Shown piece after piece: positions 24,001 to 61,881 of a stretch of DNA of 64,000 bases (positions within the stretch are counted from its first letter, which is position 1; every line of letters starts with the position of its first letter). The notes beneath the pieces are model-generated. The model was not told the DNA's origin. It saw nothing but the letters and a program-made list of their open reading frames with translations, and made no database searches. The position numbers and the translations under genes were made by a program. Origin of the DNA: Candidatus Omnitrophota bacterium (lineage in GTDB: Bacteria; Omnitrophota; Gorgyraeia; JABMRG01; JAFGKX01); the NCBI GenBank assembly GCA_043797125.1, contig JAZDPX010000045.1:72338-136337 (forward strand), given 5' to 3'.

Positions 24001-25326
24001 CTCGCATTGTTCGGATGATAAATTGCCTTTAAACATATGCCGAGTTTCATATGCCATGTTGTTATATTTAATAACCGGCATAACAGATTCCATGACCCCT
24101 GAGTCTAACCCCGGCGTTGCAATATCTCTTATTGTAGATATAATATCAACTGCGTAGGCAATATTTGTGTCTATAAGAATCTTTGCTATGTGCTGGTTGT
24201 TGTTCTCTATAATGCTGACTCCTCCGGCGCCTGCTAATTTGCGTTTGCACTCTTCTATAACCGAGGTTTCTGTTGTTATAACTATTCTGCCGGATTGCTC
24301 CTTATCTAAAAAGAAGATCCCGTGGCCCCTCGCCCTACGATTCGGTTTGTACACCAAGGGCAATGCAATATCGCCCCAAAGCGCCCTCTTTATTGTGTCT
24401 TTAAAGTCTTTGATGTCTGCCGGGTTTACAAAAAGTGCATTTTGCCCGTCGTCGTCTCCAAACGTGACAAAAAATTCCGGCTGCTGAATTGGGCCGCTTC
24501 TAAAAAAGTTTCTCTGCTGGTATTTATGATTAAATCTATTTCGCATTTGTAGAAACGTAAGCCGCATAGCTGGCGGCAGGTTTGGGAAGGGGTTTGAGAT
24601 CTTCTCTGTCTGCGGAATCTGTTTCTTGGGCGTTTTTAGCACAATCTTGTTTAAAGGGATGCTCGGCTCGTATGCTGTTTTGCCTGTCGTTTCCCCGCTT
24701 ATGGCTTCTGCGCTCTCGCCCCGGCCTTTTTCTGTTTTTGCGTTAATCGCTTCTTCAAAAAGGTCTTGCACGTTTTCATTTTCGCACGCAAGCGGCGCAG
24801 CAAGGCTGCTTTGCATCGCCGTCATAATATCCCCATAGCCCGGCAATGCGCCTTGCATTCTTTGCTCATAAAGCCTCTCGCAGTCGCCATCTCCGAGATT
24901 TGGGCATATTACGATATAGGAGATGTCTTTTTGCTTTAAGATATTTGTTATCGCGCGGGTATGGAAGCCGCCTGTTACCAACACGCTTTTTACGCTACCG
25001 GTTCTATCCATCGCTCGCAATGTGTTTTCAATTAACGCAACGTCTCTTTTTGTGGCTAATTCGTAATATTCTTTTGCGTTGTTTATCGCTTCCTGGTTTA
25101 TCTGCGTTGTTAAAATATAAGGATTTATGGACAGGCCGCATTCCGGCATGTGTTTGCTTAAAAATGTTTTTATGTTAGCTATGTTTGTGTGTTCTGTGTC
25201 ATTATTAATGGAGGCGAGGCGCTCGTTGGTGAGTTTAAGCGAAAATAAATCGTTAAGCAGATTTATTGCTTTTGAGAATTTAACAAGCTCGCGCTGGGTG
25301 TTGTTTTGAGAAATGGCGGTAAGCAT
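1..25326 (-). CDS. giant multidomain protein, 3'-partial (continues beyond left window edge); >8,400 codons in window; helical-repeat arrays, M48-like HEXXH module, internal duplications
   Basis: Minus-strand frame with codon starts at positions congruent to 1 mod 3 is open at every hand-translated site. Sites checked: 1-300, 3361-3615, 6541-6720, 11701-11991, 14881-15183, 23011-23253, 23821-24559, 25258-25510. The provided track lists no long minus ORF in 1..25262, as expected for a frame open to the window edge. The plus-strand ORFs here are low-complexity antisense artefacts. First in-frame ATG (reverse complement) is at 25324-25326, and an in-frame TAG lies just upstream at ~25499-25501. 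Confidence 0.6.
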   Translation of the reverse strand, partial: MLTAISQNNTQRELVKFSKAINLLNDLFSLKLTNERLASINNDTEHTNIANIKTFLSKHMPECGLSINPYILTTQINQEAINNAKEYYELATKRDVALIENTLRAMDRTGSVKSVLVTGGFHTRAITNILKQKDISYIVICPNLGDGDCERLYEQRMQGALPGYGDIMTAMQSSLAAPLACENENVQDLFEEAINAKTEKGRGESAEAISGETTGKTAYEPSIPLNKIVLKTPKKQIPQTEKISNPFPNLPPAMRLTFLQMRNRFNHKYQQRNFFRSGPIQQPEFFVTFGDDDGQNALFVNPADIKDFKDTIKRALWGDIALPLVYKPNRRARGHGIFFLDKEQSGRIVITTETSVIEECKRKLAGAGGVSIIENNNQHIAKILIDTNIAYAVDIISTIRDIATPGLDSGVMESVMPVIKYNNMAYETRHMFKGNLSSEQCELVYDTDAASGMEGTFARIGSSAEFSNYTGREERAAVLGWKDVYNPLYEMFNIPEESREEFRAHVDEAVKKQYRYMVRRFKAAGINANVEIRGQFDLMWLPPTETEEKNFPVPALGEALLVPLDLKDYKLEIVVGQPARATTLQTGNPEQSPDMAKKQIPHQERNEELKSVLDKRETYTITKEEKGPRDAPKAPTRIRSPDLPEDVDIAGLTAATDANGKRSTIDILKRMHCLIEDGEASPFSGLYQEINEIFQKLCAHLTGKEWADAALYLLETDEVTAFTITNHKIVCISLGLLKHFQKNECLTKDVIAFILAHEIRHMVQGKGTTLKEKFAQEIDADVWALTLMNSASYNVLEAAKTFDILSKLDKLPDLLRTAVDLIDVHLPDEKRIKLIKEILDSSNWINTKTKHLFSQKALGQLSNKTLLLETIESSYSVKNINELTQLLEKAASFPEHIFEILVEGLDSALKAVPNDITTKDNEKHYLPALIFALICGNNDDYQDITKLLLEDITPPTPYKVFTFKRMRPEAYGVYDTILTQQKYAQLRQDYKNFFATIKQSLGTTMAEMVKFKLLKDSWPQIETKPSQHSSRHDDSRRIFREILENRLKNTLKGKLNNKNDIIAYLQTAQNFLMPQDTITFSFVGESLLTYIEFIWEGAFAISDKLSWQDWEDIMTTASRQEGLLVGFNDLSLLTNRLLEDTGLDNKAKADFLMKYPFLVYSRTAVRKTVFEFLYKHYREESLDKKSMETFFAKMLERITDKADKKMIYETIATDALEELKTGKTQLLDLFLSATLPWNLDETIIMMFDFWKEPKAKEERINTLEQLLQYYYSSNKHATTPMALSERLLYELKSCVPTPEAFDKQLIEIFKQAGIEVNPNTLGQQTKIMIRFFNSGGLLTKDLFDAYKARGIKDRRVLVEFLNSAYLAKLYKEKYNLTPKKKVDLRAFSGRDIFETSFLVDGMQNVTEPSEVILPLCIRVFFETIGTPATKEKLDELCYKLDLGQKQFKRKNPLSKAGRDRLESNISMTEKKANPNTAFSMQYEPFFQKMFNLPFYGDRTDFAGSRQDFFEGLFGFILNSSISFEGLIKITLKQLPPSYFRNFVLFSLLAREIKKNHQQLNPYDLQSFNEIAKEDKEFMKKLEQVLPHMVSDDKLATTNASLFLYLQRKAKGDKEGGIGVGAYVHLALKETIKTYLKELRGKKRHAFLDYVVRKTKYVYEKTSGYVSILANLFNLSISPAELWLFEHNFLKSRYVKKIKKIMDKKGLDTEGAQEALEAGKIAAFVPLIKNYYLEEIIGVIYTNAELIFLRKAILSYIARKRKHAGVSKIGIFYFDFNHQQKLAQPDAAIATALEQNIEAKIEAEIAVEGKINYILSLLPRSQPLRDKYLEMIAENVLSDIGISETEKVIHLQNLLGEFYNAYFRDKYSLKALELEKALKPDMHINDEIELIKKYFPDQSYSRDDILKSVLEKVETFQEYEQISGLFYAEKKGILDDEDKIKNVYYEEKFKVLFERMSCEEKKDFVLWIAGISQMPLFMREYEELLGVSFEPLKDIYSISPSAAYPHAGEGTRELLIGEMFLGKDGILKNEKIFMKLIDTVYNFIIKKTELGKDIKQGDLKKIFLTIMQEADGAKRLKVVKALFVNFAFLLKQEGQTSHAYYEIIPKVMESLDVIGIQVAQILVFSEDVRIPQALRNAFAALSSKANPLTKKVAFETLKNTNQQGKIKRIGKPLGSAKIKIVFEAEDYNNEELALKIKRPDVQHYLDEETAFFRRVCTSLRKKGLKIPHGFESRASEGLGRDADFKREIENTKKLEKQLAEINKENGYKFSSGEKIEFLVPKIREDSTETVLYAEKIAGSDLDNKEELKAKAGFTEAELIKLKKTIFDFLMVQLFGKGLYLADPHGGNFRIVRKDGKIKVYLIDVGAVEECKIDKKTYKDLLYGLIATDLGIKTKGNEHMLPAMFFKKTGYLTNGMSAREILDVIFSKMAPENRPYKNADAFMKSLPAGISLKYFLRSPVKVIKDVLKTGKKPGQSPDMVKKEISHEADEKQKKAVHRALVRIRSPEALEAVANSDALNVKKLAKKLNLTQDQIRQRLIQIAQPINVIIVKNRLTLHHEGPYAHTRRGVSKKGDTAIWLGEKLFASEKITDEDIALLLLEEAKHILDPYADHKIISHSKGLQRKLNRAAKALREPLPATICEADMAESMLKNPFVKIFIIGAGIFAALTYLVRNPDETLKRIDQYFNKKPQASLSKTAPVSISNVPMLDKDITDLLKRAAEDAQAADDLINLYYERADTEPMISLGIMGSLIDMARGGSGYIEEKLKQIDAAPLLKYTPNKLDAIYWIDKLTGFDNPTAFSCLVKLGNLGEAEAVSVLENATYGRARKTAKQALKEINPDKFAENIALEHLFTDSPSANALATMVNAGNVAARGELINLILKGNAWATIRAASADLKDDAKMRQLLKYMDTDVLINPTAEGKNQDFDFAALRVLIDIDNPNIYKTLRKLVSMGATVASYGLRYAAEQGKISVLGTLIDILKSNDVKNHFYYSVADSLLILASDENPAPDEIKNKALGVFKDDFKKALPYMQFEPGVNSPGVMAVVNKSIDLIGTDKVKKIRQDIEAKYNRAPQKILLYLCMPEVVYPLLEAHKQMAENGIDIDLSYFISAAFAEGYIAFAQDCIAGEETVFHIALPLGLDRFGESEERLRKKGFLPQNYKGFVRGGTTYNNEAGDNFPLGTFLSPKDALIAHGALLLEDRDNFIKEVKRHGYDTARLTEEEIEVGTYLQYCTGNSVPYLKEYGTDIVGKIGTGTHGNGIYNAQWPPAGAEFLEETGIVEKTGEPKKSEVAKEISANKPNASGIAIAGTLMTQIGGAWLRLWRRIRMLWAALRLGREESPDMADKELVHEVSNEELKKIIDENRMYRINIYDWWENHMQERLGRVRGKIHRTAELEGFDVKTMADKLGLKEDQAREELIRVGKKIDIIVVKNSFRLYRGGPIAHARRGVSRKDDRAIWIGQNLLLSADIDDTDIARLLLEEAKHILAPKLEHKDIAHNQALLKRLEEKAMFFPRGAEEETAEYRGKQIDEIKIENTPGIGPVRLVHILDKYTFGDYILANQHFIGPSIYYYDKEDINRHAAKLKILAGIKEDMSWLEFKWYLERNAQEAKDVFRCVNNQTSLKTKLLRFLKILPGNAPTKSKNDVKNLLAENNQVIIEDIWDILLDARALEEEDYDLIYDIISRFGAEGKRKILDEIMHKIFSPGEMNKIYYTNMIRIIAKALDRHNEAIKRDFLGGVKKGLRVYYSQTRNEDVLAKTEEGDVSVPRGAYVLKQILPHINDQTTMEELFEMVKPLLTYNTRGSDNPGPREREIGLWLCKNSLRRLEDDELKLFLLEQACSCLSYSYRGSTRKDMGPGMMDILAAELIAETMPYLAFSNQETLMPKLIENLGYAELVDRGSRIDKITKIASKFNNWQKANILYAGNFSKAKAPSWIKEYLPDQRPVDKKEEYRLVADIAASIETRGLAGRMADCGVNAEEAKKLLTKEIPLRYQDMLTADMAATTAVAMAESRIGIDKIRSLLMDTIPQQYNNADLCYYMIGAIKAAAIMAKGGIDIEIIERAIGEKWPIQCRGNTSLAARIIEQAGIRAVGLIKSGVADKIVSAAKDAAKENISKGAVESLFIYDLVLLYHDINRTIPAEEAPEEASLPDYSMNKDKAFRAIGLIGNDKDTEYGWSYAYETAWSELVQRYALMDEIKIGETILQLIKLGVRFEEIKTIFTIGLKGNERLAKSVSRIAESEIKRYGLISPRDKTDLTTLPCSDTPFAYEKGDEDAKALIMLLFCEIPLKYREIPVEAAKAAAGLVWRGAEITKVKNLFLENQGTYGKVQKFNKILDSGAIYKIADKIEKLKPTGSSKTIARVIDLLFFQMPDNYDYADRFADAVETLEKIASSDIIDKIATKLNWLVSEKEARAKLAELLFFRLQTDPLCRQFQGPSGRNETSDVAMRAHVYAYEVAEGLGEITGSGVINKIAEKLGKLIGEEKAKAKTTELILSEMPFYDHVSAYETAPLLEQIAALDIIDKISAKLSTRLGEEEAKTKVIDFLLFKLPKLYGKNFYRIAKAAGSIISEAGFSFESTAEFLLETPNPHLDTTAKTIELIEELAESDAIAKIVTELRNHLNALTGKASEEKAKAKTIDPLLFKVFLKYDNNSHEILNAILQMLKTGVSISAIQECLENFASADKSTSLETIKILGNIAGSEQISKIRSALKQQLDDFGATNTIELMLTRWLPHEYSSVTCEKGPGQDDLSREINKAINLASSDPAASKLIELLFIKLPSCKYGINVCDLVIKMIKAGASIEQTEQLLTEEMPKMYGAQAKEAVPGLLELGQRFEKSNLKRFLEIVIKRLPRELSNFTASIESFMRGMQTIPAQRLLQYIDSRDKKRAMDIMLLDNNHQSIFEHIELFMNALEDKQEDKKKKSEKTLFINNVFIQVASESSPGNNAPPSHVQFWQIVKAACDLKEKHGNWREEIRSIELDNQAFKELKIELLEKNRFLESWEQFQRLEMLISIIGANDLEKALNLYRFSGTEDGRKIYAYYHKLLTHQAVKSGYSKTIEKMILDPREFLDLEDTNVPLSNHIKKISRLLELEYVDIGAEELLLGLILGKYDHLQVLQPLSTTIDISDVDTEIKTIKGGSLLQRLASYGAEEGILREVLVKYFKQKQESDDYKTQTNGTANGINKILTLLQKGQTTFGTIVDQTKNAKFGVEELKGCGLILPRYTISLMRKSDPDTIMTGSELSNCMSLSSGKNTHYIFNPNSQILILSKETASADGIRYNKILATSVVTADREITRRISELEEIIKSVAPSSINPSQYDEAIEKLRDLFDAEKLFGSDFMDKISKEVYISLDNVEGDANFASSNKMAEKIVETAYIKFFKEYFEERGTTLRGRPINKSKVIVGTRHSKFLHSLDGKLDNYFLTQILNVYSDKADSTVNFLPIEDSYKPTPAKELNGVKPLSPEDLLEISYIESKAFKDIALGGNHIAGIEMELLGIMYNEALKGERRKNLSLGYFKDGKLLGYVIAHVGYDKEREEEIVCISDFAVLHKKGKAAGALMKELFKSIRGTAKMFKEKYEKDIKIIFDSTPDAQGSYWLLMPRKDDSEATKLKKQQRLAEAGLIIESPAEADTQPGKDFIKFVLRVDLDAPEQNYKNSRELVPVAQIGKDGEFTEIDLARQTATIKDLKGDKHPVKLELQSDETLKALITAVETLIKDKPAHRKLLEMFLKLREKSPPALYTFDTLIEDAFGTALPEQNTILLYKNLLNNPNALLHEIEEYVCKSNNIQFKLQDDTLVIAKSKLYILKSITKIKLPAPILEWLNIKLRQNPENKTHYYLRALAKATLGETDEKLTKAIKQQAGTEKAYVQINQLKFIKDDESEAMVDVYERAPGSAYGEKLGTLTLYQRTMDHPLRMVQAGIDALGIKDSERNWLLYFMFRPLQYAQPKFYIYNKLIKGLTSFASPEHRLIALYEDFADEPIAAWHELMKYLIKAGKLKIKFKHSHWGKNKIVVEDSDKKEKAEINITGEALSIALKNPKESDYLLKALQREIFKDSDKKLIRKIQHKQNPPAEDVSILSLINSSCCWFGKLKIAADKIARPEAKIKTLTNLAIAQAKAGLKEEAKKTFDDVKTTIEENDGITYKISYLAELAITQAQVGLKEEAKKTIIAAENLLAKTKEGLFKQEGYESLAAAQIETGLFDDAKNNINETINASRKFALLIRLAIKQAKEGLAEKAESTLEEAKDIIKEEPVYSADFEDVPTGWANLGAAQAQIGLTKEAKESFAKAQSLLDSKGVLAYGVETHWGYFVKAQIRAGFFDDAKYTMDKHNAGGVSISDIASAKMQTGLLDEVKDMIDKMHYTNDKFELLINLIAKQVEKGLVKDAINTLKDAQGVMHATSRASYINKLAELATAQALVGLTEEAEATIFKARMALDDISGSSKLKARVILAGAQMHAKLFEKAKDAIEDVIDSYDEAKIDADFILALSSFTNHTPALIKRFTEPKKLKELLDAPRQKEKAKAQKLFSQALLLGFWNEQFARQDCIKLAYRAAEACLNGLGFKKESISLLTKTESKTLKLLVSVNKQRDYQRQKQFIHDFLEIIMLWYQLFPGDANLYNLTTIFDNYDASTVSASRKLSAILTLLQEIENKCNYIGLFSKLSREPKVFIYQLELIAKYKHSLDLLDDPQKIARLDLTNMDEASSKTSIEEVICDSLSDLLGGEISKTKRKLHSDATEALADADFLVDLFNFRQAYSKESEAAYTRLTELARVYLLKGTQGIIEHKASHRLAFKQAPHHVRDKFSELAKLKETASPEAPDDNLSIFDAWFKTNFENYKRHIGEYSASFRESSVASEEDIQKLENKLKDLYAGAADVQLKEAILSKDINELKKLRFDKENLDENKRNGAIGLLGKLNIIKDNSISKQAMGIMDEIGLIEQCPLDEQAQEVRKLYERCENSLADIITGLNTLYQMLQSQNKPQSIIAADMIGLLKTLQKLPTSRQKSKEAVSAEVGFDLKETLKIGRYGASGQGNCQRSTSAGENKHSLTSFIGDAQELIIITKNAAMDTLGLVLLHGVYLESGEFVYVKEKLYTNYNHLTGAQQKAVSKLTQGIANLLNIKILDCYGEGEKETFTVTIPESYVPRYLDSLGGQVKAASAKATITSSVIEPQVKIGNPASARIGKKGGARGIIYRNGKRYLSIQDIELERYGFAPYELAQVEIKALDKNRVETLMRSAQALAETPLRDKEIWGKFLELFKNIPEKDKPEFCSFKPSAEHPTLDYFGHAEPKDKLLVLHENLLEYPLALLHEIKEYVCKYYKIEFEVEKKEQGGGATITIKGIGKIEIAGDNYSRLNNRLINMPQEYKTHYFLLSIQEALLPKQNTQLREKIRKEQVIAQEKLTDIYVGNFSKGALEETPTAQHAKKPVTKNKKKILEHIATERSLTDVAKTAETKYKLVIDDEAATQYKSLVIDKKNKRLAMSCFKALKKISSTGNNIGKIQSKKRTGFKGIKYGIGAKEEPVVPRAIRLTGDLRILFAPVKVYGKQVMLIFGIKTHKELEGGGARNEYDQFTAAAKAAADFKQGYIDLIKNDLKEYIAKNNITKAQALEGRLQEIAKMIFVEQQRPADNRPEFIRIDNVSGISKIDRKDYENMGFPQYDTTTSDNIAGRIGKETMLILETFKFTKPDKNQAKIEICKPVGADEIIEGEPTKVVSLGTLFFNKTGIDPKTALRDSVEKAGLMLEEDKQFVFKITDFYEETPALYNFAYADLIKDLFGFALNDERNLIVLHEKLVGNPVALFHELCHYFIGYEPGRQKLLELVYDRENAAIIVRARKDSSQEFEEIGRARISPETLLSIANEDKEAWPEYGQWHKNPHHLLRILQRQIFGKYDVELTRWIKLNKDLHGFRKIEDSLYEKFRKDRSFIAQLGHGRKSFDLPGIELDLSKEETKKRLHAQHCLVRAICKRELGDYKGAETEIKEAIKAYPDEEFLYWKALDIYEEAKDYERLNEMYEKIAEKFGQFSKLHVRMLEAYEWYSPREENVQRIIKHSGLLVAKAAEEEDICLGYCARITIAIRSEQYNMARYYIQQAQKGSFSKEFALETDFYLAATELLEGKTDEARARLENIFKETLENMELKEAMRFISSIYGNVHSAELLELLLSEISGKEGEKEKQKASVRMKYCILSMLHSIEPDNETILKLKAVVGGIFEEASHIQECLEKAETEPDARGKINIIETTLKKYPDNTILKDEIAKICLNEGTAAFDAKDLDTAVEFFRKALEVKPEDRVIIDKAAQAFLDKAKQHSQQNHFTEAVTILEEAFKHCKGKPVINELKTTYVNAAEALLKDKDWNILARSDKEDFKRAKEYFEKAHELEKAKELDLQDSTIKTRLDKVKAHYEKVFELDNMFREAETLMAETRTREEKVNALVGKAPTLEGKDNTAGSRYPLVLNA
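5900..7060 (-). other. array of ~36-40-aa alpha-helical hairpin repeats (TPR-like) within the giant ORF
   Basis: Translation of 6541-6720 gives ...FALLIRLAIKQAKEGLAEKAESTLEEAKDIIKEE.... The DNA periodicity (gcctctgcttcttc...gggcctgggc motifs) recurs across ~5.9-7.1 kb. Confidence 0.5.
11400..12300 (-). other. HEAT/armadillo-like ~55-aa helical repeats within the giant ORF (recurrent GEE[EK]AKAK / IDKI..KL motif)
   Basis: Translation of 11701-11991 gives ...AEKLGKLIGEEKAKAKTTELILSEMPFYDHVSAYETAPLLEQIAALDIIDKISAKLSTRLGEEEAKTKVIDFLL.... The DNA repeats visibly (ttcttcttcgccaa / ttttcgcc motifs). Confidence 0.45.
23044..23058 (-). other. HEIRH (HEXXH) zinc-metallopeptidase motif inside the giant ORF, with upstream NAF-like and GLL elements in an M48/HtpX-like arrangement
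   Basis: Careful translation of 23011-23253 gives ...EVTAFTITNHKIVCISLGLLKHFQKNECLTKDVIAFILAHEIRHMVQGKG. Confidence 0.5.
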
Positions 25327-26477
25327 TTTCTCTTGCGCTGCTTCGATTTCTTCGAAAAGCGCAAGGTGGTCGATGCGCTTGGAGAGCGCAAGGTAGTCGA
25401 TGTAGGCGAATAAATCATTGTGGGCTGTGGGCTGTGGGCTGTGGGCTTGTTGGCTGGTGACTTTGTGACCTGGTGACCTGGTGACTCCGCCAGTCCTGCT
25501 AGATAACTATAAAATTCCTCGTCCGTTATTTTGCCCAGCTTAAATTCCAAGCTTTTCGAGAGAAGCTCCTGTAATTTATCTTTCTCGAGGGTTTCTGAAA
25601 GTTCCTTTATCAACGCCTCCCTTTGTTCCTGGGCTTTGTTAAAATCTATTGCCTTCTCTTTTTCGACAAGCGCGATGAATGCCTGCAAATTTTTATATTT
25701 TGTTAAATCTGTTTTTGCTTTGTTGGAATATTTTTCTAATTGCTGGGCGTATTCTGAAAGCGTGATCGTTTTGTTGCTGTAATCATCGTTTGCCCTGTCA
25801 AGCGCAAGCATATCCTTTGCGTACGCTTCGGCTTTTAGCCTGTTTAAATCCGACCTTAAAAGCGCCGCGAAAGAAATTACATCCTGCTTGTTTAGCTGGT
25901 ATTTTTTATTACAATCAAGATGTTCAAGGTATAAGCCTCTATCCTCAACGCCTGTAGGCACTAAATATTTATCCCTGTTGGTTATCTTGTAAAATTCCGC
26001 CCCTGTAAAAAGCGCTGTTTTTACAAATGCTTGCGCAACCTGCTTTTTTCTTTCTGTATCCGGGAATTTATCGTAAAAGGATGTATCAAGCTCTCCGGAG
26101 GCGCCTTCAAGGCATAAAAGATGAAGGTTGTGCTTTTGCGCCAGGTTATCTATTATGCCTGCTATGTTAAATTGGGCGCAAGCATCCGCATGGCGGTCCT
26201 GGATGTGGACAATTAACTTTTGCTGGCTGCCTTTATATGTTTCTAAGACTCTGCCGTGTTTTTGGGATACTGACAAATCCAGCGGCGTAAGCGCAAGGCC
26301 GGTTTCTGCTTCTTTTGTTTCTTCATTAACATATCTTTGCGCGTGGGAGGTTTTCTTAAACAGGGTCTGGCCGTCAAAGCCGTAAGCAGGCGTGTTTGTT
26401 GTGAGAAAACATATTATTAGTATTATTGAGATAATCCTAATAATAAATTTCTTATGAGGCTTATGTACGTCTATCAT
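25263..26477 (-). CDS. signal-anchored secreted/membrane module (404 aa); probable 5' portion of the giant gene, separated from it by a frameshift inside a heptamer repeat
   Basis: ATG at 26477 with N-terminal hydrophobic helix (MIDVHKPHKKFIIRIISIILIICFLTTNTPAYG). Protein-like sequence continues until the repeat tract at 25420-25489. After the tract, this frame becomes low-complexity junk while the giant frame becomes protein-like. Confidence 0.55.
   Translation of the reverse strand: MIDVHKPHKKFIIRIISIILIICFLTTNTPAYGFDGQTLFKKTSHAQRYVNEETKEAETGLALTPLDLSVSQKHGRVLETYKGSQQKLIVHIQDRHADACAQFNIAGIIDNLAQKHNLHLLCLEGASGELDTSFYDKFPDTERKKQVAQAFVKTALFTGAEFYKITNRDKYLVPTGVEDRGLYLEHLDCNKKYQLNKQDVISFAALLRSDLNRLKAEAYAKDMLALDRANDDYSNKTITLSEYAQQLEKYSNKAKTDLTKYKNLQAFIALVEKEKAIDFNKAQEQREALIKELSETLEKDKLQELLSKSLEFKLGKITDEEFYSYLAGLAESPGHQVTKSPANKPTAHSPQPTMIYSPTSTTLRSPSASTTLRFSKKSKQRKRKCLPPFLKTTPSASLLNSQKQ
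25420..25489. repeat. (GTGGGCT)4 heptanucleotide tandem repeat followed by degenerate 7/8-mer units (TGGTGAC-like); coding phase changes here
   Basis: Four perfect GTGGGCT copies at 25420-25447, then tgttggc, tggtgac, tttgtgac, ctggtgac, ctggtgac. Both reading frames through the tract encode AHSPQPT-like peptide. Confidence 0.8.
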
Positions 26478-26567
26478 ATCTTTTACTTTTTAAAACATTT
26501 AATTAGTAGATGCAAAAATAGAGGGCTTTTACACCCCTTCCCCTTTTCATTGCCTTTATGTGTTATA

Positions 26568-26596
26568 ATTATACACTACAATAGGCTATTTGTCAA
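26568..26596 (-). promoter_or_regulatory. sigma70-type promoter for the giant gene (TTGACA-17 bp-TATAAT on the minus strand)
   Basis: Reverse complement reads cTTGACAaatagcctattgtagtgTATAATtataac. The -35 is at 26591-26596 and the -10 at 26568-26573, about 90 nt upstream of the ATG at 26477. Confidence 0.55.
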
Positions 26597-26782
26597 GAGG
26601 TTATGGCAATGTTTGCCTGATAAATCAGGCAACTACATTGTTTTGGTTTATAACAAGAAAGCGAGATGGTGGGAAATGTTGCGTATCTTGCCGAAGCAAC
26701 TATGCCAAGTGAAGCTTTTGCTTATAATCTGATGGCTGTGCCACGAACCCGAGCCTTAGCTTTTCTTGCGGCGAGTGGTTCG

Positions 26783-26860
26783 TGGCGTCCCCAACCGGAT
26801 TCGAACCGGTGTCGAGGGCTTGAAAAGCCCTTGTCCTAGGCCAGGCTAGACGATGGGGAC
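26783..26860 (-). tRNA. tRNA-Glu (anticodon UUC)
   Basis: Reverse complement is GTCCCCATCGTCTAGCCTGGCCTAGGACAAGGGCTTTTCAAGCCCTCGACACCGGTTCGAATCCGGTTGGGGACGCCA. It folds as a cloverleaf, closely resembles E. coli tRNA-Glu, and encodes the CCA. Confidence 0.85.
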
Positions 26861-26904
26861 GCGGAAAAGTTCAAAATTCAAAATGTAAAATTCAAAATTC
26901 TTCT

Positions 26905-29334
26905 TTACTCTTCTTCTGCAAAGACGCTGGCGACCGCAGAGACGGTGTCGTTTCCTTTAAGCGATATTGCCCTTACTCCTTGCGTGGAGCGGCCTGTTGT
27001 TCTTATGTCTTTTACGGGGGTGCGCACTATCATGCCTTGCTGCGTAATTATCATAATTTCGTCGCCGTCTTTTACGCTTTTAATCGCGACAACAGGGCCG
27101 TTTTTAGCGGAAATTTTTAAATTTATAATGCCTTTGCCGCCCCTGCTTTGTGTCCTGTATTCTGAAAGCTCGCTTCTTTTCCCGAAGCCTTTTTTGGTCA
27201 CTGTCAGAAGGGTCGCGTCTGTTCTTACAACCTCCATGCCCACAACAGAATCCTTTGGCCCCAGCTTAATACCTCTTACTCCCCGCGCCGCCCTGCCCAT
27301 TTCTCTTATGTTTGTTTCTTTAAAGCGCAGGCTTTTGCCTGCCTCGGAAGCAAGAACAACTTCTTCTTTGCCGTCCGTTAAAAGCACGCGCTCCAGGATA
27401 TCGTCCTTGTCAAGGCCAATAGCTATTATACCTGCCTTGCGCGGGTTAGCAAACACTGACAGGTTCACCCTTTTCACGTTGCCCTTTTTTGTGACCATCA
27501 TAAGAAAGCGCTTGTCATCGAATTCCTTTACCGGCACAAACGTTGTTATGTTTTCTCCCTTTTCAAGCTGCACAAGATTCACTATCGCCTTGCCCCTTGT
27601 TGTTCTGCCTGCCTGCGGTATCTCGTGGACCTTAAGCCAATACGCCTTGCCTTTGTCCGTAAAAAATAATATGTATTCATGCGTTGACGCTATAAACAGG
27701 TGCTCTATAAAATCTTCGTCCTTTAGCGCCGCTCCAGCTATACCCTTGCCGCCCCTGTTTTGTTTTCTGTATGAGCTGACAGGCAGCCTTTTTATATATC
27801 CGGAGTGGCTTATTGTAATCACAACGTCCTCTTCCTTGATCAGATCTTCTATCTCAAGGTCTTCCGGCGCTGCGACAATATCTGTCCTTCTTTCGTCCGC
27901 GTATTTTTCTTTAATCGCGAGGATTTCTTCTCTTATAATAGCCAGCACCTTTTTCTCGCTCTTTAAAATAGACTGGTAATATTCTATCTTTTTGATAAGT
28001 TCAAGATACTCCGCCTCTATCTTGGAGCGCTCCAGTGCGGTAAGCCGCTGTAACTGCATCTCCAATATTGCCTGCGCCTGCTTATCGGACAAATCAAAGT
28101 TTTCCATCAGGGCAATTTTTGCCTCCGGCGTGCTTTTCGAGGCCCTGATTGTTTTAATAATTTTCTCTATGTGGTCAAGCGCGATTTTTAAGCCTTCAAG
28201 TATGTGCGCCCTTGCCTGCGCTTTTGCCAATTCAAATTTTGTTCGTCTTGTTACCACTTCTTTTCTGTGGTCGATGTAAACATCTATTGCCTGGCGAAGG
28301 TTCAGCATTTTGGGCTGGTTTTTAACTAAGGCCAGCATAATAACGCCAAAGGTTTCCGCAAGCTGTGTGTGTTTGTAAAGCTGGTTCAGTATAAGCTGCG
28401 CCGGGTAGTCGCGTTTTATGTCCACCACTATGCGCATGCCGTCTTTGTCGGATTCGTCTCTTACGTCTGAAATGCCTTCTACTTTTTTCTCTTCTGCAAG
28501 CTCTGCTATGGCTGCGATGATGTTCGCTTTGTTGGTCTGGTATGGGATCTCTGTTACTATTATGGATTCCTTACCGCCTTTTTGCGTCTCAATATTCGCC
28601 TTGGCGTGCAATTTAAGCGAACCCCTTCCCGTAAGGTATGCGTCCTTTATCCCGTCTCTGCCGCATATCAGTGCGCCTGTCGGGAAATCCGGGCCTTTGA
28701 TAATTTTCATAAGGTCCTTTATTTCAACGCCGGGTTCGTCAATAACCTTTACAACGCCGTCAACAACCTCGCCCAAGTTGTGCGGCGGGACGTTTGTGGC
28801 CATGCCCACAGCAATGCCGCTTGAGCCGTTTATTAAAAGGTTGGGAAGCACAGAGGGAAGAACTGTCGGTTCCTGCATGGTATCGTCAAAGTTGGGCACA
28901 AAATCTACGGTCTCTTTGTCTATGTCCTGCAAGGTTTCTTCGGCAATAGCCGCCATGCGCGCCTCTGTATATCTCATGGCCGCCGGCGAGTCTCCGTCGA
29001 CCGATCCAAAATTCCCCTGTCCGTCAACTAACGGATATCGCAGCGAGAAATCCTGCACCATCCTTACAAGCGCGTCATAAACCGACATATCTCCGTGCGG
29101 GTGGTAGCGGCCGAGGCAGTCTCCGACTATTCTCGCGCACTTTTTGTAGGGCTTGCTGTGCTGCAGAGACAAATCATTCATTGTAAATAAAATGCGCCTG
29201 TGTACGGGTTTTAGCCCGTCGCGGGCATCCGGCAAAGCCCTGCCCACAATAACGCTCATCGCGTATGTAATATAAGAATCTTTTATTTCCTCTTCAATCC
29301 GCCTTGGTTCTATGCGTTCGTTTTTTGTGTACAT
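26905..29334 (-). CDS. gyrA: DNA gyrase subunit A
   Basis: 809-aa ORF with canonical GyrA N-terminus (ITYAMSVIVGRALPDARDGLKPVHRR) and C-terminal beta-pinwheel repeats. Lies downstream of gyrB. Confidence 0.95.
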   Translation of the reverse strand: MYTKNERIEPRRIEEEIKDSYITYAMSVIVGRALPDARDGLKPVHRRILFTMNDLSLQHSKPYKKCARIVGDCLGRYHPHGDMSVYDALVRMVQDFSLRYPLVDGQGNFGSVDGDSPAAMRYTEARMAAIAEETLQDIDKETVDFVPNFDDTMQEPTVLPSVLPNLLINGSSGIAVGMATNVPPHNLGEVVDGVVKVIDEPGVEIKDLMKIIKGPDFPTGALICGRDGIKDAYLTGRGSLKLHAKANIETQKGGKESIIVTEIPYQTNKANIIAAIAELAEEKKVEGISDVRDESDKDGMRIVVDIKRDYPAQLILNQLYKHTQLAETFGVIMLALVKNQPKMLNLRQAIDVYIDHRKEVVTRRTKFELAKAQARAHILEGLKIALDHIEKIIKTIRASKSTPEAKIALMENFDLSDKQAQAILEMQLQRLTALERSKIEAEYLELIKKIEYYQSILKSEKKVLAIIREEILAIKEKYADERRTDIVAAPEDLEIEDLIKEEDVVITISHSGYIKRLPVSSYRKQNRGGKGIAGAALKDEDFIEHLFIASTHEYILFFTDKGKAYWLKVHEIPQAGRTTRGKAIVNLVQLEKGENITTFVPVKEFDDKRFLMMVTKKGNVKRVNLSVFANPRKAGIIAIGLDKDDILERVLLTDGKEEVVLASEAGKSLRFKETNIREMGRAARGVRGIKLGPKDSVVGMEVVRTDATLLTVTKKGFGKRSELSEYRTQSRGGKGIINLKISAKNGPVVAIKSVKDGDEIMIITQQGMIVRTPVKDIRTTGRSTQGVRAISLKGNDTVSAVASVFAEEE

Positions 29335-29353: not shown

Positions 29354-31930
<2,577 letters not shown>

Positions 31931-31957
31931 TTATCCTTTAACCTTACGCTTTACACT

Positions 31958-32272
31958 TTACGCTTTTTCTACTTCCCCGGCCCTGAACCGTATTTTTTTA
32001 ATCTTGTCGCTTTTTAATAGCGCTGCCATGTTTTTGATCAGCTCGCTTTCTTTTGTGCGCAGTTGGTATATCCACATTGTGCTGTCCACATTTATCACAA
32101 GGTCGTTGTTTCTTATAAGCGCTGGGCTGCTATGTTTTGCCGCCTGCTCACCTGCGGCCTTGCGCCAGGCGTCATATATGTCATATTTGCCGGTGTTCGC
32201 TGTCTTGTCTATGCCGCCTATCACTTCCTTTACAGCGTCACTTATATGCGATGGTTTCTTATACTGCCTCAT
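31958..32272 (-). CDS. DUF721 / DciA-like small protein
   Basis: 104-aa ORF between dnaN and gyrB. Pattern W..A.G...A.H..P......L.V.V.S..W..EL matches DUF721 proteins typically found at this locus. Confidence 0.55.
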   Translation of the reverse strand: MRQYKKPSHISDAVKEVIGGIDKTANTGKYDIYDAWRKAAGEQAAKHSSPALIRNNDLVINVDSTMWIYQLRTKESELIKNMAALLKSDKIKKIRFRAGEVEKA

Positions 32273-33460: not shown

Positions 33461-34810
33461 CTATTTGTTGTTTTTAATGTTATACACAATTTTATCTATG
33501 GATTCTTTTATGTTTTTGTTGTTTATGACCTCTTTTTTTATTTTTTCGTGCGCGTGCAGTATTGTGGTGTGGTCTTTTCCGCCAAACAGGTTTCCTATCT
33601 CTGGGAACGAGTTATCGGTCAGCTCTCTAGATAAATACATGGCGACCTGGCGCGGAAGCGCGACGCTTTTTGTTCTTCTTTTACTTTTTATCTCCGCCAC
33701 GCTTATATTAAAATACTCAGACACAGCCTTTTGTATGGATTTAATAGATATTTCCTTGTTTTCTTCTGCCGCAACCTCTTTTAAAACCTCCTTGGTCATA
33801 TCCAGATCTATGGTTTTGCCTATCAAAGAAGAAAACGCGACAACCCTTATTAGGGCCCCCTCCAATTCTCGTATGTTTGTCTTAACTTTTTCCGCAACAT
33901 AAACAACAACGTCGTCAGGCACGCTTATAATCTCTTTTTCGGATTTTTTCTTTAAAATAGCCACCCTTGTTTCAAAGTCAGGCGCCTGTATATCCGTAAC
34001 AAGGCCCCACTCAAAACGCGAAACCAGCCTTTTTTCCAAAGAAAGGATCTCTTTGGGTGGGCGGTCGCTCGACACAACAATTTGTTTGTGCGCATCGTAC
34101 AGGGTGTTGAATGTGTGAAAAAACTCTTCCTGGGTGGCTTCCTTGCCGGCAATAAAGTGTATATCGTCTATTAAGAGAACATCCTGCTCGCGGTATTGTT
34201 CGCGGAATTTTAACATGGTCCTGTTTTGCAGCGCGCTAATCAGCTGGTTTGTGAATTTTTCGCTGGATATGTATGTAACCTTAAGCCGGGGGAGATTTTT
34301 AATTATATGTTGTCCAATTGCCTGCATAAGGTGGGTTTTTCCAAGCCCTACCCCGCCGTAAATAAACAACGGGTTATATGACTTTGCCGGCGATTCTGCC
34401 ACAGCCATAGACGCGGCATGCGCAAAGCGGTTGCTAGGCCCAACCACAAACTCCTCAAAGGAATACCTGGCGTTAAAACGCACTCCTGGCTGGATAAGGC
34501 GCTCAAAAGGCTTGGTAAAAAAACCAAGGCCCCTTTTCTCCTTTTGTTTTGCGTCGTCACTAACAGCGCCCCCCTTAGCAATGGTTATCTCGAAGTCAAG
34601 GGGCCCGCCGGCCGCACTCGTTACGGCCTTTTTAATGACCTCGCTATAATGCTCAGAAAGCCATGTTTTAAAAAACGCGTTGGGCGCCTCAATAATAAGC
34701 CTCCCGTCCGCAAGAGAAACCTGCTTTATGGGCAAAAACCACGTTTCATAGCCCTGCGGGCTTACTTCCTGCTTTATCTGCTTTAAGGCGCCGTCCCAAA
34801 GGTTTTCCAC
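33461..34810 (-). CDS. dnaA: chromosomal replication initiator DnaA
   Basis: 449-aa ORF with Walker A (GGVGLGKTHL), AAA+ sensor motifs and a C-terminal DnaA-box-binding HTH domain. Confidence 0.95.
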   Translation of the reverse strand: MENLWDGALKQIKQEVSPQGYETWFLPIKQVSLADGRLIIEAPNAFFKTWLSEHYSEVIKKAVTSAAGGPLDFEITIAKGGAVSDDAKQKEKRGLGFFTKPFERLIQPGVRFNARYSFEEFVVGPSNRFAHAASMAVAESPAKSYNPLFIYGGVGLGKTHLMQAIGQHIIKNLPRLKVTYISSEKFTNQLISALQNRTMLKFREQYREQDVLLIDDIHFIAGKEATQEEFFHTFNTLYDAHKQIVVSSDRPPKEILSLEKRLVSRFEWGLVTDIQAPDFETRVAILKKKSEKEIISVPDDVVVYVAEKVKTNIRELEGALIRVVAFSSLIGKTIDLDMTKEVLKEVAAEENKEISIKSIQKAVSEYFNISVAEIKSKRRTKSVALPRQVAMYLSRELTDNSFPEIGNLFGGKDHTTILHAHEKIKKEVINNKNIKESIDKIVYNIKNNK

Positions 34811-35012
34811 TTACACACCCCTTTTTAGCTATTCACAACTTATCCACAGCAATATTTAAGCGCGCGGACACGCGTAATTAACGCGGGGCATATTATAACA
34901 GAACAAAAATTCTTTTTCAAGCAAAATTTTCCGACGGAAAAATTAAAAATTTTTCCTTGACTGGGGAGTTTTATGTGTTATACTCGTATAACCGCACAAC
35001 AAAGGGTGTAAA
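34811..35012. promoter_or_regulatory. candidate oriC / dnaA promoter region with a perfect DnaA box TTATCCACA (34841-34849), a near-match CTATTCACA, and an AT-rich DUE-like tract
   Basis: Lies between divergent dnaA and rpmH. Sequence aaaattctttttcaagcaaaattttccgacggaaaaattaaaaattttt follows the boxes. Confidence 0.5.
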
Positions 35013-35150
35013 ATGAAAAAAAATCTAACATTAAAATCTAACCGGAAAAGAAAATATAAACACGGGTTCAGAAGAAGAATGTCCACCAAAACAGGAAGGC
35101 GTGTCCTGGCAAGGCGCAGACAAAAAGGGCGCAAAATCCTGTCTGTATAA
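35013..35150 (+). CDS. rpmH: 50S ribosomal protein L34
   Basis: Encodes [45 protein letters not shown], not listed in the provided track. Confidence 0.9.
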
Positions 35151-35182
35151 AACAAGCCCGCACAAACCCGCCGGCAAAACAG

Positions 35183-35392
35183 GTGAAAAATCTTTTAATC
35201 TGCGCAATAAAGTTTTATCGTTGTTGTCTGCGGACACACTTGGCCCCTGCGTGTAAATACCACCCGACGTGTTCCGAATACGCAATTGAAGCCATAAAAA
35301 CAAAAGGAGCCCTGCGGGGCTGTGCCATTGCAGCGTGGCGGCTTTTAAGATGCAATCCGTTTTCAAAAGGAGGCTATGATCCTGTAGGATAA
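35183..35392 (+). CDS. yidD: membrane protein insertion efficiency factor YidD
   Basis: 69-aa ORF with the conserved YHPTCSEYAIEAI...CNPF... core. Confidence 0.85.
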   Translation: MKNLLICAIKFYRCCLRTHLAPACKYHPTCSEYAIEAIKTKGALRGCAIAAWRLLRCNPFSKGGYDPVG

Positions 35393-35396
35393 AATT

Positions 35397-41286: not shown

Positions 41287-41470
41287 ACAGGATTTGCTGG
41301 AAAGAGTGCCTTGTGTTTTCAAGCTGGTTGTCCTCGCGTCGCGAAGAGCCTTTGATATAAATGCCGGCGCGCCGACATTTATACATGAACTAAACGCAAA
41401 GGCTACGCACATTGCGCTCGAAGAAATCAAGGCCGGCAAGATTACATACAAAGAGATAATAGGCAAATGA
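41270..41470 (+). CDS. rpoZ: RNA polymerase omega subunit
   Basis: 66-aa ORF with RpoZ-like sequence in the expected position after gmk. Confidence 0.75.
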   Translation: MSIVTKQDLLERVPCVFKLVVLASRRAFDINAGAPTFIHELNAKATHIALEEIKAGKITYKEIIGK

Positions 41471-42015
41471 AGACGCAAAAGACGATATTGCTCGGCGTAA
41501 CAGCCAGCATAGCGGCATACAAGGCGTGCGAGATAATTAACCGGTTAAAACAGGCCGGTTTTAATGTAATAGCGTGCGTTACAAAAGACGCGCTGCATTT
41601 TATCACCCCGCTCACGCTGCAGGCGCTTTCAGGCAACAGGGTCTTTTGCGACATGTTTGAGCAGGTTGCGGAATGCAACCCCGCGCATATAAGCCTGGCC
41701 AAAAGAGCGGACCTTGTTTTAATAGCCCCGGCCACAGCGGATTGCATATCTAAAATGGCGTCGGGCATTTGCGATGATATATTAACCTGCGCGGTGGTTT
41801 CTACCAAGGCCCCGGTTTTAATAGCGCCCGCGATGAATGAGAATATGTACAAAAACAAGATTATACAGGCTAATATCGAAAAACTAAAACAGGCAGGCTT
41901 TCAATTTGTCGGGCCAAAAAAGGGGAGGCTTGCCTGTGGCGAATGGGGCGTGGGCCACATTGCGGATGTTTCCGAGATAATCAAGGAAACAAAAAAGATA
42001 TGCGCATTCTCATAA
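41467..42015 (+). CDS. coaC: phosphopantothenoylcysteine decarboxylase (flavoprotein; CoaC domain)
   Basis: Flavoprotein fold motifs (GVTASIAAYKA, PAMNENMY). Ends 16 nt after the start of the CoaB-domain ORF, in a different frame, next to an A6 run at 41991-41996. Confidence 0.8.
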   Translation: MKTQKTILLGVTASIAAYKACEIINRLKQAGFNVIACVTKDALHFITPLTLQALSGNRVFCDMFEQVAECNPAHISLAKRADLVLIAPATADCISKMASGICDDILTCAVVSTKAPVLIAPAMNENMYKNKIIQANIEKLKQAGFQFVGPKKGRLACGEWGVGHIADVSEIIKETKKICAFS

Positions 42016-42746
42016 CAGCAGGCCCCACCAGGGAATTTATTGACCCAGTGAGATATATCTCAAATTTATCGACGGGCAACATGGGGTACGCGATAGCAAG
42101 GCGCGCTAAAAACAAAAAGCATAAAGTTACCCTTGTGTCAGGCCCGGTTGGCCTTAAGCCACCGGAAGGTATCAGGGTTATCGAATGCGTTAGCGCAAAC
42201 GATATGTTCAGGGCGGTAAAAAAGGAATTTAAAAAAACAGATTGTCTGGTTATGTCCGCCGCGGTCAGCGATTTCAGGCCAGAGATAAAGCATAAAGAAA
42301 AGATAAAAAAGCAGAAGCCCCCCAACGGCAGAAAATTGGCGTTGGTGCAGACCCCAGACATACTCGCGTGGGCGGGCAAAAACAAGGCCGACAAAACAAT
42401 AGTCGGTTTTTGCTTAGAGACAAGCTCTTTGACGCAAAACGCGAAAAGAAAACTAGAGGAAAAAAACGCGGATATAATAGTAGCGAACCAAATAGATAAA
42501 AATTTTTCCGCATTTGGTTTCGGCAAGACAAAGGTTTTGGTAATTGGAAAAGGCGGCAGCGTCGAGAAAATCGGCCCTAGCACGAAAGAAAAAATAGCAG
42601 AAATTCTGCTCGAGAGAATAGAAAAACTTTGGCATAACGGCCGTTTCGCGGAGGCAAAGGTCCCTCACCCCGAAGCGCCGGGGTCCGGGACAAATTTTCC
42701 GAAAAATAAAGCCGTAGAAAATTTGGCGGCGTACCCAAGAGGCTAA
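42000..42746 (+). CDS. coaB: phosphopantothenate--cysteine ligase (CoaB domain)
   Basis: MRILITAGPTREFIDPVRYISNLSTGNMG matches the CoaB N-terminus. The 3' end reads into tRNA-Cys. One extra A in the A6 run would fuse it to coaC as a canonical CoaBC. Confidence 0.8.
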   Translation: MRILITAGPTREFIDPVRYISNLSTGNMGYAIARRAKNKKHKVTLVSGPVGLKPPEGIRVIECVSANDMFRAVKKEFKKTDCLVMSAAVSDFRPEIKHKEKIKKQKPPNGRKLALVQTPDILAWAGKNKADKTIVGFCLETSSLTQNAKRKLEEKNADIIVANQIDKNFSAFGFGKTKVLVIGKGGSVEKIGPSTKEKIAEILLERIEKLWHNGRFAEAKVPHPEAPGSGTNFPKNKAVENLAAYPRG

Positions 42747-58533: not shown

Positions 58534-58540
58534 TTAATGG

Positions 58541-61009: not shown

Positions 61010-61881
61010 AACCCGGCGCCTATTTAAAGAATAAACAAAGGCTGATAGACGACAAGTTAAACGCGCTTATTCCGGATGCAAAAAGTTTTCCGCCGCTGAT
61101 TTATCAGGCAATGCGCTACAGCATGGCAGACGGCAAAAGAATAAGGCCTATTCTTTGCATGGCCTGTGCTAAAATGTGCGCAGCCAGCGAAAAAGATTCT
61201 CTTCTTTGCGCCTGCGCAATTGAAATGATACATACGTATTCTCTGATACACGATGATCTGCCATGCATGGATAACGATGACTACAGAAGGGGCAGGCCTT
61301 CGTGTCATAAAAAATTCGATGAAGCAACGGCTGTTTTGGCCGGGGACGCATTAATGACGCTCGCTTATAATATATTGGCAGGCGCCACAAAAGGCCCCGG
61401 CATAAATAACCGTTTAATAAAAGTGCTGTCAGAGGCAACCGGCTCAAAAGGCATGATAGGCGGCCAGGTTGTGGACATAGGTTGCGCCCACAGCCCACAG
61501 CCCACCCCATACCATTCGCTTCGCTCAGGTACGGGGCAGGCAGCCCACAGACCAATGGATTTACCGACGATCGAGTACATAAACACCCATAAAACCGGCG
61601 CCTTGATAGCTGCCTCATGCAGGTTAGGCGCAATTATAGCGAGAGCCTCCAAGCGAAAAGAACAGGCAATTTTTAAATTCGGCGAATATATTGGATTTGC
61701 ATTTCAGGTTGTGGATGACATGCTGGATAACGAGGGCATGGCTAGGGTTATCGGTAAAAAGCGCTCGCATGTAAGGGCAAAAGATTTAATAGAAAAGGCA
61801 AAGGCCCAGCTTTCTACGTTTGGCAAAGATAAAAAGCCATTGCTGGATTTAGCGGATTTTATTTTAGAAAGAAAACAATAA
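61006..61881 (+). CDS. ispA: (2E,6E)-farnesyl/geranyl diphosphate synthase
   Basis: DDxxD motifs (LIHDDLPCMDNDDYRRG; VVDDMLD). xseB-ispA-dxs synteny. Contains a ~19-aa in-frame insertion carrying heptamer repeats. Confidence 0.85.
   Translation: MKPGAYLKNKQRLIDDKLNALIPDAKSFPPLIYQAMRYSMADGKRIRPILCMACAKMCAASEKDSLLCACAIEMIHTYSLIHDDLPCMDNDDYRRGRPSCHKKFDEATAVLAGDALMTLAYNILAGATKGPGINNRLIKVLSEATGSKGMIGGQVVDIGCAHSPQPTPYHSLRSGTGQAAHRPMDLPTIEYINTHKTGALIAASCRLGAIIARASKRKEQAIFKFGEYIGFAFQVVDDMLDNEGMARVIGKKRSHVRAKDLIEKAKAQLSTFGKDKKPLLDLADFILERKQ
61485..61507. repeat. GCCCACA heptamer tract (GCCCACAGCCCACAGCCCACCCC) inside ispA, part of a ~57-nt in-frame insertion translated as ...CAHSPQPTPYHSLRSGTGQAAHRPM...
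   Basis: Same heptamer, same encoded AHSPQPT peptide, as the giant-gene junction repeat at 25420-25447 (reverse complement). Confidence 0.7.

Follow-up and report, generated by a model that had tools for sequence, protein, structure and literature searches.

The window analysed here, that is, the whole 64,000-nucleotide stretch of an Omnitrophota contig, contains a replication origin, with a turning point of both GC and AT skew near 35 kb. To the left of the origin, on the minus strand, lie dnaA-dnaN-gyrB-gyrA-tRNA-Glu and a giant gene whose start is some 8 kb from dnaA. To the right, rpmH-yidC-parAB and the later genes lie on the plus strand.

As assembled, the region of the giant gene comprises two minus-strand reading frames that overlap by 244 nt: an ORF of 404 aa, headed by a promoter and a putative signal peptide, and a very long open frame (Table 1). 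A preliminary description of this DNA gave the giant ORF as 25 kb, with a TAG just upstream of it. The TAG is indeed found at 25509..25507, and the frame is open from 25506 to base 1, but the length is a minimum, as the ORF leaves the window. The ATG at 25326 to which the same description pointed is the earliest start codon in the giant frame: no GTG or TTG start precedes it, the second start codon lies at 25149, and ATG 25326 is the sole candidate for independent initiation. A ribosome in the 404-aa frame would need to move by -1 (or +2) to stay in the giant gene. The giant frame, whose GC content is 42%, carries the C-terminal half of a head domain, followed by M48 peptidase-like, ABC1 kinase-like and TPR regions; it has one internal hydrophobic segment, and hardly any homologues exist for the body of the protein.

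Table 1. Features of the 404-aa ORF, the giant frame and the region in which they meet (positions are those of the window).
Feature	Position	Strand	Remarks
Sigma-70-type promoter, perfect TTGACA-17-TATAAT	26568..26596	(-)	12/12 consensus matches
Start codon and putative Sec-type signal peptide/anchor (MIDVHKPHKKFIIRIISIILIICFLTTNTPAYG)	26379..26477	(-)	From hydropathy, AlphaFold and homologues
404-aa ORF	26477..25263	(-)	Ends in TAA at 25265..25263
Homology-supported in-frame part of the 404-aa ORF	25488..26477	(-)	Ends ...FYSYLAGLA
TAG closing the giant frame on its 5' side	25507..25509	(-)	Frame full of stops further upstream
Interval in which the frame must change, 65 nt	25423..25487	(-)	Homology limits on both sides
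Octamer array GTCACCAG GTCACCAG GTCACAAA GTCACCAG	25454..25485	(-)	Period 8, 4.0 copies, third copy imperfect
Perfect heptamer array (AGCCCAC)4	25420..25447	(-)	A degenerate copy (AGCCAAC+A, 25455..25448) lies before it
Out-of-frame tail of the 404-aa ORF, 51 residues (MIYSPTSTTLRSPS...)	25263..25419	(-)	No homology
First ATG in the giant frame	25324..25326	(-)	60 codons after the TAG, inside a conserved domain
Giant open frame, 8,502 codons	1..25506	(-)	Continues past the left window edge

The promoter precedes the ATG at 26477 by about 90 nt and is the only strong promoter-like site in positions 25000..27000; the same scan found none that was strong just upstream of ATG 25326. The signal peptide or anchor is suggested by a Kyte-Doolittle hydrophobic peak at residues 7-34, by a helix at residues 9-27 in the AlphaFold model, and by a basic-hydrophobic-YA/YG N-terminal pattern that is common to the homologues.

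When the two frames are joined in silico, the fused N-terminus can be used as a query for related proteins. Such a search retrieved the 404-aa ORF itself, which the record MFH0732827.1, from a Candidatus Omnitrophota MAG, calls a hypothetical protein, and six homologues, of which P0002, P0003, P0004 and P0006 are unbroken across the junction. Species-representative genomes contain 318 loci that encode the module, the nearest relative having 46% identity, and in all 80 of the loci kept from this set one tblastn segment, in one frame, covers the junction. The smallest ORF with the module has 511 aa and consists of nothing else; the largest exceed 4,000 aa, an upper size bounded by the flanks that were fetched. 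The window's gene is the only one with a split module ORF; there is no such case among the related loci. An independent conserved C-terminus of the 404-aa ORF, which the preliminary description had named as an observation that would speak against its account, is absent: all 80 related loci match through the junction. It is strongly supported, therefore, that one gene, for a giant and probably Sec-exported protein, has been split into the 404-aa ORF and the frame of at least 8,502 codons. The module is thus a head that large Omnitrophota proteins commonly bear at the N-terminus.

The residues that are invariant in an alignment of 30 sequences fall on both sides of the junction: H91, I92, Q93, D94, H96, Q102, E124, G125, G176 and E178 upstream, and Y364, Y474, R480, G505, G506, H508, S522 and P528 downstream. 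The AlphaFold model of the head (mean pLDDT 75.5, pTM 0.60) places beta strands at residues 75-177 and 499-528, with a long helical insertion between them, and we infer from the model that the two groups of strands form one alpha/beta core. The in-frame part of the 404-aa ORF contains the signal peptide, the N-terminal half of this core and most of the helical insertion. Neither fragment alone is able to form the head domain. According to the model, the head would be an alpha/beta domain resembling those of the Tiki/TraB/ChaN/erythromycin-esterase superfamily, with a long helical insertion, that is cut in two by the frame change. It shares with that superfamily the predicted alpha/beta fold and His-rich invariant motifs in both the N- and C-terminal halves, and differs from it in that about 280 residues of helical insertion part the halves of the core. 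Pfam models for the superfamily match only below threshold: PF04187 in 4 of the 30 members (best E 0.016) and PF01963 in one (E 0.039). No member has a significant match to PF01963, PF04187 or PF05139, and the window protein has none at all; nor did a profile search against PDB sequences or a Foldseek search with the head domain return any match. The domain is newly defined here, as a widespread, unannotated, Tiki/TraB-like head, found at the 318 loci, on Omnitrophota proteins whose lengths run from about 500 aa to over 4,000 aa.

Homology also locates the change of frame. In the frame of the 404-aa ORF, it stops at 25488 (FYSYLAGLA); in the giant frame, it starts at 25422 (HNDLFAYIDY...). The earlier observations that the 404-aa ORF is protein-like up to the repeat and junk beyond it, and that the giant frame is protein-like from the repeat onward, both agree with these limits, the 51 tail residues of the former being free of homology. 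The 65-nt interval that remains is made up wholly of a compound microsatellite. Were an indel to strike at random in some 26.5 kb of gene, its chance of landing in 25487..25423 would be only about 0.3%, and we therefore take a change in the number of repeat units to be the cause. That the frame break lies inside the microsatellite, with the two ORFs being one gene, is close to certain. Relative to the homologues, the residues encoded by the arrays form an insertion of 13-15 aa in a variable linker, and the AlphaFold model shows the repeat-coded residues 335-352 as a loop, its pLDDT being below 50.

On the plus strand, positions 25420..25447 read (GTGGGCT)4; as the genes are on the minus strand, the coding sequence is (AGCCCAC)4. 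TRF calls this tract with period 7 and 5.3 copies, rather than the four perfect ones, because of the degenerate copy upstream. The tract was the central claim of the preliminary description, and it is present at the frame switch far beyond chance expectation. It is the sole perfect SSR in the 64-kb window (units of 1-9 nt, three or more copies, 16 nt or longer), whereas 200 first-order Markov simulations gave no perfect SSR of 21 nt or more with a unit of at least 4; and the 14-mer AGCCCACAGCCCAC, allowing up to 2 mismatches, has 6 matches versus 0.27 expected. In 1.13 Mb of related loci there are only 3 perfect SSRs, none inside the module ORF and none with a unit of 7, and a 12-mer of the heptamer tract occurs nowhere in 81 Omnitrophota loci. 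The octamer array, which was overlooked earlier, abuts the heptamer tract, and its unit of 8 is not a multiple of 3 either. The compound array thus consists of (GTCACCAG)~4 followed by (AGCCCAC)4 and spans 66 nt (25485..25420), the heptamer part accounting for 28 nt. The heptamer tract is long enough for a published in-silico cut-off, under which 6-10-mers count as candidate phase-variable SSRs from 3 copies upward (PMC5084427), but its four copies are at the low end of tract lengths, and passing the cut-off says nothing of the rate of switching.

We next ask which copy numbers rejoin the two frames in silico. As had been claimed, 5 or 2 heptamer copies place the signal-anchored module in frame with the giant ORF: a gain of one heptamer yields a fused ORF of 8,828 aa, and a loss of two yields one of 8,821 aa, each open to the window edge. 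The loss of one octamer has the same effect, with a fused ORF of 8,823 aa that is likewise open to the window edge. When octamer and heptamer numbers are tabulated against each other, one third of the states are open to the window edge, at 8,816-8,835 aa, and the closed states stop after 346-416 aa. From the assembled state, 2 of the 4 possible single-unit slips rejoin the frames. The two arrays can also offset each other, a gain of 7 nt and a gain of 8 nt summing to 15 nt. The only routes to a perfect four-copy array of 7-mers pass through states that are out of frame or through steps of 7 and 8 nt that compensate each other, which would imply past toggling. The only N-terminal signal peptide sits upstream of the tract, and it is accordingly strongly supported that export of the giant protein depends on the tract, as the preliminary description proposed.

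It is conceivable that the four-copy allele is functional as it stands, either through a programmed frameshift or by producing a 404-aa secreted stub together with a giant protein initiated at ATG 25326. The frame overlap of 244 nt leaves room for the former. Programmed -1 frameshifting and transcriptional slippage were both rejected, however, as the overlap contains no X_XXY_YYZ slippery site and no homopolymer of 5 or more, and no stimulatory structure: shuffled versions of the region fold better than the region itself (z = +1.93). As for initiation at ATG 25326, many real genes in the window have an upstream region no stronger than the one found here (AAGAGAAA); indeed, we discarded its weak Shine-Dalgarno sequence as an argument against this start, since the real window genes mostly lack a strong one. 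On the other hand, the giant frame offers no start codon close to where the 404-aa ORF ends, which makes translational coupling unlikely; the product of ATG 25326 would lack an export signal and contain only the C-terminal half of the domain; and none of the 80 homologues is organised in this way. We regard a functional four-copy allele as very improbable indeed.

A second possibility is that the frame break is an artefact of sequencing, assembly or consensus calling, and that the real allele is in frame, with 5 heptamers, for example. Tandem repeats are classic sites for miscalled copy numbers, the consensus of a MAG may mix strains, and the assembled allele is exactly one unit away from one that is in frame. 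The quality of the rest of the window, on the contrary, is high. About 27 other genes fit Pfam models well, most of them at full length, and none looks frameshifted (dnaA, dnaN, gyrB, gyrA, yidC, parA, parB, ndk, yicC, gmk, coaC, coaB, thrS, infC, trkH, trkA, pheS, pheT, an epimerase gene, mgsA, the 5-FTHF cyclo-ligase gene, rny, ymdB, xseA, ispA and dxs); together with a giant frame that is unbroken over 25.5 kb, this is unlike indel-prone long-read data. The coaC/coaB region (41467..42746) was considered as a second frameshift, and hence as a sign of poor assembly, and was rejected: these are two separate overlapping genes, each with its own start, the ATG of coaB at about 42000 overlapping the stop of coaC. 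Moreover, an error of a whole 7-nt unit is atypical of base calling. In de Bruijn assembly, the copy number of a repeat that is shorter than the reads and k-mers is read directly, and both the 28-nt tract and the 66-nt array are shorter than typical reads and final assembly k-mers. The frame break is thus likely to be genuine, and an artefact quite unlikely.

Other tandem arrays in this genome bear on how the tract arose. Arrays of 7, 8 and 14 nt are unusually plentiful here, most of them in spacers; period-7 arrays occur at 6.25 per 100 kb, as compared with 0.89 in the 1.13 Mb of related loci. Spacer arrays face each other in pairs, forming long periodic hairpins with z down to -5.0. The 20-nt sequence GCCCACAGCCCACAGCCCAC also occurs in frame in the FPP synthase gene (61485..61505), where it contributes to an 18-aa stretch that solved structures lack. 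Cyanobacterial genomes contain short tandemly repeated repetitive (STRR) heptamers, which are dispersed and mostly intergenic. This genome resembles them in having dispersed 7-nt tandem arrays at many, mostly intergenic, sites. It is unlike them in that the unit differs from site to site, except for GCCCACA at two sites; in that many arrays are paired as inverted repeats that form periodic hairpins; and in that two arrays are inside genes. There is no relation to cyanobacteria.

At the junction site itself, an array is absent from 79 of the 80 homologues. The sole carrier is the closest homologue, the locus L003 that encodes P0002, which has a degenerate heptamer array of its own (AATTACC x5.3), in frame, in the same linker. 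About 0.35 arrays of this type are expected by chance over 79 loci (P ~0.3), so that L003 is suggestive only, and we set it aside as proof of a conserved switch site. Metagenomes were also scanned for (AGCCCAC)4. The tract occurs in more than 120 unrelated contigs, with GC contents of 36-69% and 4-14 copies, many at contig ends, and none of these contigs encodes a relative of the giant protein; the heptamer is a generic microsatellite, and we discarded the scan as uninformative about the gene. A search of JGI metagenome contigs with the fused protein found no conspecific DNA. There are no exact-protein records elsewhere for the 404-aa ORF, GyrA or DnaN, and the 90% clusters of the 404-aa ORF and GyrA are singletons, both from one contig of 142,845 bp.

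These arrays cut both ways. A genome-wide habit favours an accident, and arrays in tolerant loops also persist. The locus may have undergone a recent non-adaptive inactivation, by one slippage in a chance microsatellite, which would make the giant ORF a young pseudogene. The mechanistic evidence, namely the restoring changes and the homology-bounded interval, is identical for inactivation and for a switch. Since 7/8-nt arrays are common in the spacers and found in the FPP synthase gene as well, the genome is evidently prone to them, and selection need not be invoked to explain one more in a tolerant loop. The copy number is only 4; many proven phase-variable loci have more, and the switching rate increases with copy number. 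No second perfect SSR occurs in the 64-kb window, which thus gives no sign of a multi-gene phasome, and the rarity of the array among the homologues also fits an accident. Finally, the giant ORF's product was not found in a database of 5.8 billion proteins (queried with 200 to 1,109 aa), which would fit the depositors, or PGAP, having treated the gene as a pseudogene. Against these points stands the condition of the gene. All 8,502 downstream codons are still open, at 42% GC, so that any inactivation must be very recent, and the perfect consensus promoter has been kept. The array is perfect, which indicates recent expansion. Since 2 of the 4 single-unit slips would revert the break, even an accident would act as a reversible switch. 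We consider simple inactivation improbable, if by no means far-fetched.

The reading that we prefer is that the locus is a hypermutable phase-variation ON/OFF switch, caught OFF in the dominant genotype of the sampled population. To judge by its sequence, the chances of this seem to us about even. Under such a mechanism, slipped-strand gain or loss of one repeat unit at replication would change the frame within an array that encodes what is probably a disordered, lineage-specific loop of the head domain. The assembled allele would be OFF: on the transcript from the promoter at 26596..26568, translation would halt after 404 aa, giving a product in which the signal peptide and one half of the head domain are followed by 51 nonsense residues. 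The giant frame would then remain untranslated, or be translated from the internal ATG 25326 without an export signal and with half of the head. A gain of one heptamer, or a loss of two heptamers or of one octamer, would turn the gene ON, with a fused ORF of at least 8,821-8,828 aa. We infer, further, that the tract slips in vivo often enough to be of use and in both directions, and that some cells are ON.

SSR frameshift switches are a well-known class, and the window gene belongs to it by its form, in an unusual host and an unusually large gene. In contingency loci, reversible switching occurs at 100 to 10,000 times the basal rate (PMC11868660). Such loci are found in Neisseria, Haemophilus and Campylobacter; the closest parallel is pglE of Neisseria meningitidis, in which phase variation occurs by a coding heptanucleotide repeat (PMC7157529). 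The window gene shares with them a repeat whose unit is not a multiple of 3, located in the 5' part of a gene with an exported or surface product, such that a slip of one unit would toggle between full-length and truncated frames and one third of copy numbers are ON. It differs in several respects. It is known from one consensus sequence, with a tract of only 4 copies; the gated gene is at least 26.5 kb; adjacent arrays of 8 and 7 nt make the ON/OFF states two-dimensional; there is no other such locus in the 64 kb; and the host is a free-living or episymbiotic uncultivated member of the Omnitrophota, rather than a host-adapted pathogen.

Giant genes of Omnitrophota have been reported by West-Roberts et al. 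2023 (bioRxiv 10.1101/2023.11.21.568195) and in a 2026 preprint (10.64898/2026.06.07.730766), neither of which mentions frameshifts, phase variation or tandem repeats. The window gene shares with those genes the phylum, as given by the NCBI name of the source MAG, a very long single reading frame, a signal peptide at the N-terminus and the lack of any Pfam domain in the N-terminal region; the window also resembles those genomes in that the genes of a replichore keep to one strand and dnaA lies at the origin. In contrast, the window gene starts about 8 kb from dnaA, as opposed to about 100 kb; some 8,800 aa of it are seen before the ORF runs off the window, whereas the preprints stress proteins of more than 30,000 aa; and the near absence of homologues for its body counts as a further difference.

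A more far-reaching proposal is also more tentative. It holds that a costly exported giant protein (a gene of at least 26.5 kb, beside oriC, with a perfect promoter) is gated by slipped-strand phase variation in Omnitrophota, by means of a compound 8-mer/7-mer counter in a disordered loop of the head domain, and that an active process of heptamer-array formation also made the intergenic hairpins and the in-frame AHSPQPT-type peptide in FPP synthase. Taken as a whole, this seems to us possible but doubtful.

Even if the frame break is a mutation or an error, it has a practical consequence. Gene callers render such a gene as a 404-aa 'hypothetical protein' and a giant frame without an export signal; because they split the gene, and because the protein database lacks the giant product, such split loci will be misclassified when the topology and length of giant proteins in MAGs are surveyed. 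If, instead, the gating proposal is true, this would be the first contingency locus described in Omnitrophota, and giant proteins reported without a signal peptide may be OFF alleles. Giant-gene biology would become testable, with ON/OFF ratios readable from metagenomic reads. Contingency loci would reach beyond host-adapted pathogens, and an uncultivated bacterium that is probably predatory or episymbiotic would be using the cheapest known bet-hedging device for a protein of more than 8,800 residues.

The giant-frame product (1-25506, minus strand) was not found in a protein database of 5.8 billion sequences, searched with queries of 200-1,109 residues. Beyond the head domain, that is, the Tiki/TraB/ChaN/erythromycin-esterase-like N-terminal module, the giant protein is almost without homologues: there are two weak matches, which cover about 12% of the query at 33-38% identity. 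Pfam matches in the giant frame are limited to stretches of M48 peptidase-like, ABC1 kinase-like and TPR sequence.

The closest homologue, P0002 (46% identity), is encoded at the related locus L003, which has its own heptamer array, in frame and in the same linker as the AGCCCAC tract of the giant gene. The unit of this array, AGTTACC, is similar to the octamer of the array abutting the tract, AGGTCACC. At the level of the family of related loci that carry the module, the L003 array does not reach significance (P about 0.3).

The window itself contains a further heptamer array, inside the FPP synthase gene, and this array is identical to the giant-gene tract over 20 nt, on the opposite strand. 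It is in frame and lies inside an insertion of ~18 amino acids (part of the stretch CAHSPQPTPYHSLRSGTGQAAHRP). FPP synthases of solved structure, 7my6 among them, lack this insertion. A partial second copy of the array follows; the remainder of the insertion is unique within the window.

Just downstream of the tract there is also an imperfect direct repeat. Since homologues share the two-fold peptide pattern that it encodes, it is an old internal duplication and lies outside the proposed ON/OFF switch.

Only about 8 kb separates the start of the giant gene from dnaA, which lies in the region of the chromosomal replication origin. To the left of the origin lie dnaA, dnaN, gyrB and gyrA, and to the right an rpmH-like small ORF (about 35013), yidC, parA and parB. 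The sign of the GC/AT skew switches at about 35 kb, and on either side of the origin virtually all genes point in the direction of replication.

Elsewhere in the window, we considered a second frameshift at coaC/coaB and rejected it: these are separate genes, overlapping by about 16 nt, with the coaB ATG at about 42000, whereas coaBC is usually fused. A LAGLIDADG-type homing-endonuclease ORF is flanked by tRNA-Val and tRNA-Leu, with thrS downstream.

Coordinates of the features discussed (window positions, except for L003)
Feature	Position	Strand	Details
Degenerate heptamer array, L003 (JABMRG010000133.1)	L003:6084-6120		AATTACC GATTACC AATTACC AGTTACT AGTTACC
FPP synthase gene	61006-61881	+	
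Array within FPP synthase gene	61485-61505	+	GCCCACA x2.9
Second partial copy of that array	61542-61555		AGCCCACAGACCAA
27-nt direct repeat	25343-25396		70% identity; YLALSKRID / HLALFEEIE
Replication origin region	about 33461-35400		
dnaA	34810-33461	-	
coaC and coaB	41467-42746	+	Flavoprotein domain; DFP domain
tRNA-Val	42948-43024		
LAGLIDADG-type ORF	43626-44381	+	PF14528, E 1.6e-10
tRNA-Leu	44345-44433		
6S RNA	54149-54336	+	Rfam RF00013, 85.4 bits
Spacer arrays	58538-58610; 37268-37368; 46853-46940; 47547-47633; 54019-54080; 26866-26900; 31922-31966		

Immediately past one heptamer-array region lies a 6S RNA, with an mgsA-like gene downstream of it.

In intergenic spacers of the window, 7-, 8- or 14-mers are repeated in degenerate tandem arrays. 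Several of these arrays pair up as inverted repeats and form long hairpins in which mismatches recur periodically (z-scores of the RNA fold: -5.0, -4.3, -3.4 and -3.0). The density of period-7 arrays in the window is ~7 times that of related Omnitrophota loci (1.13 Mb), and the spacer arrays are reminiscent of the STRR heptamers of cyanobacteria.
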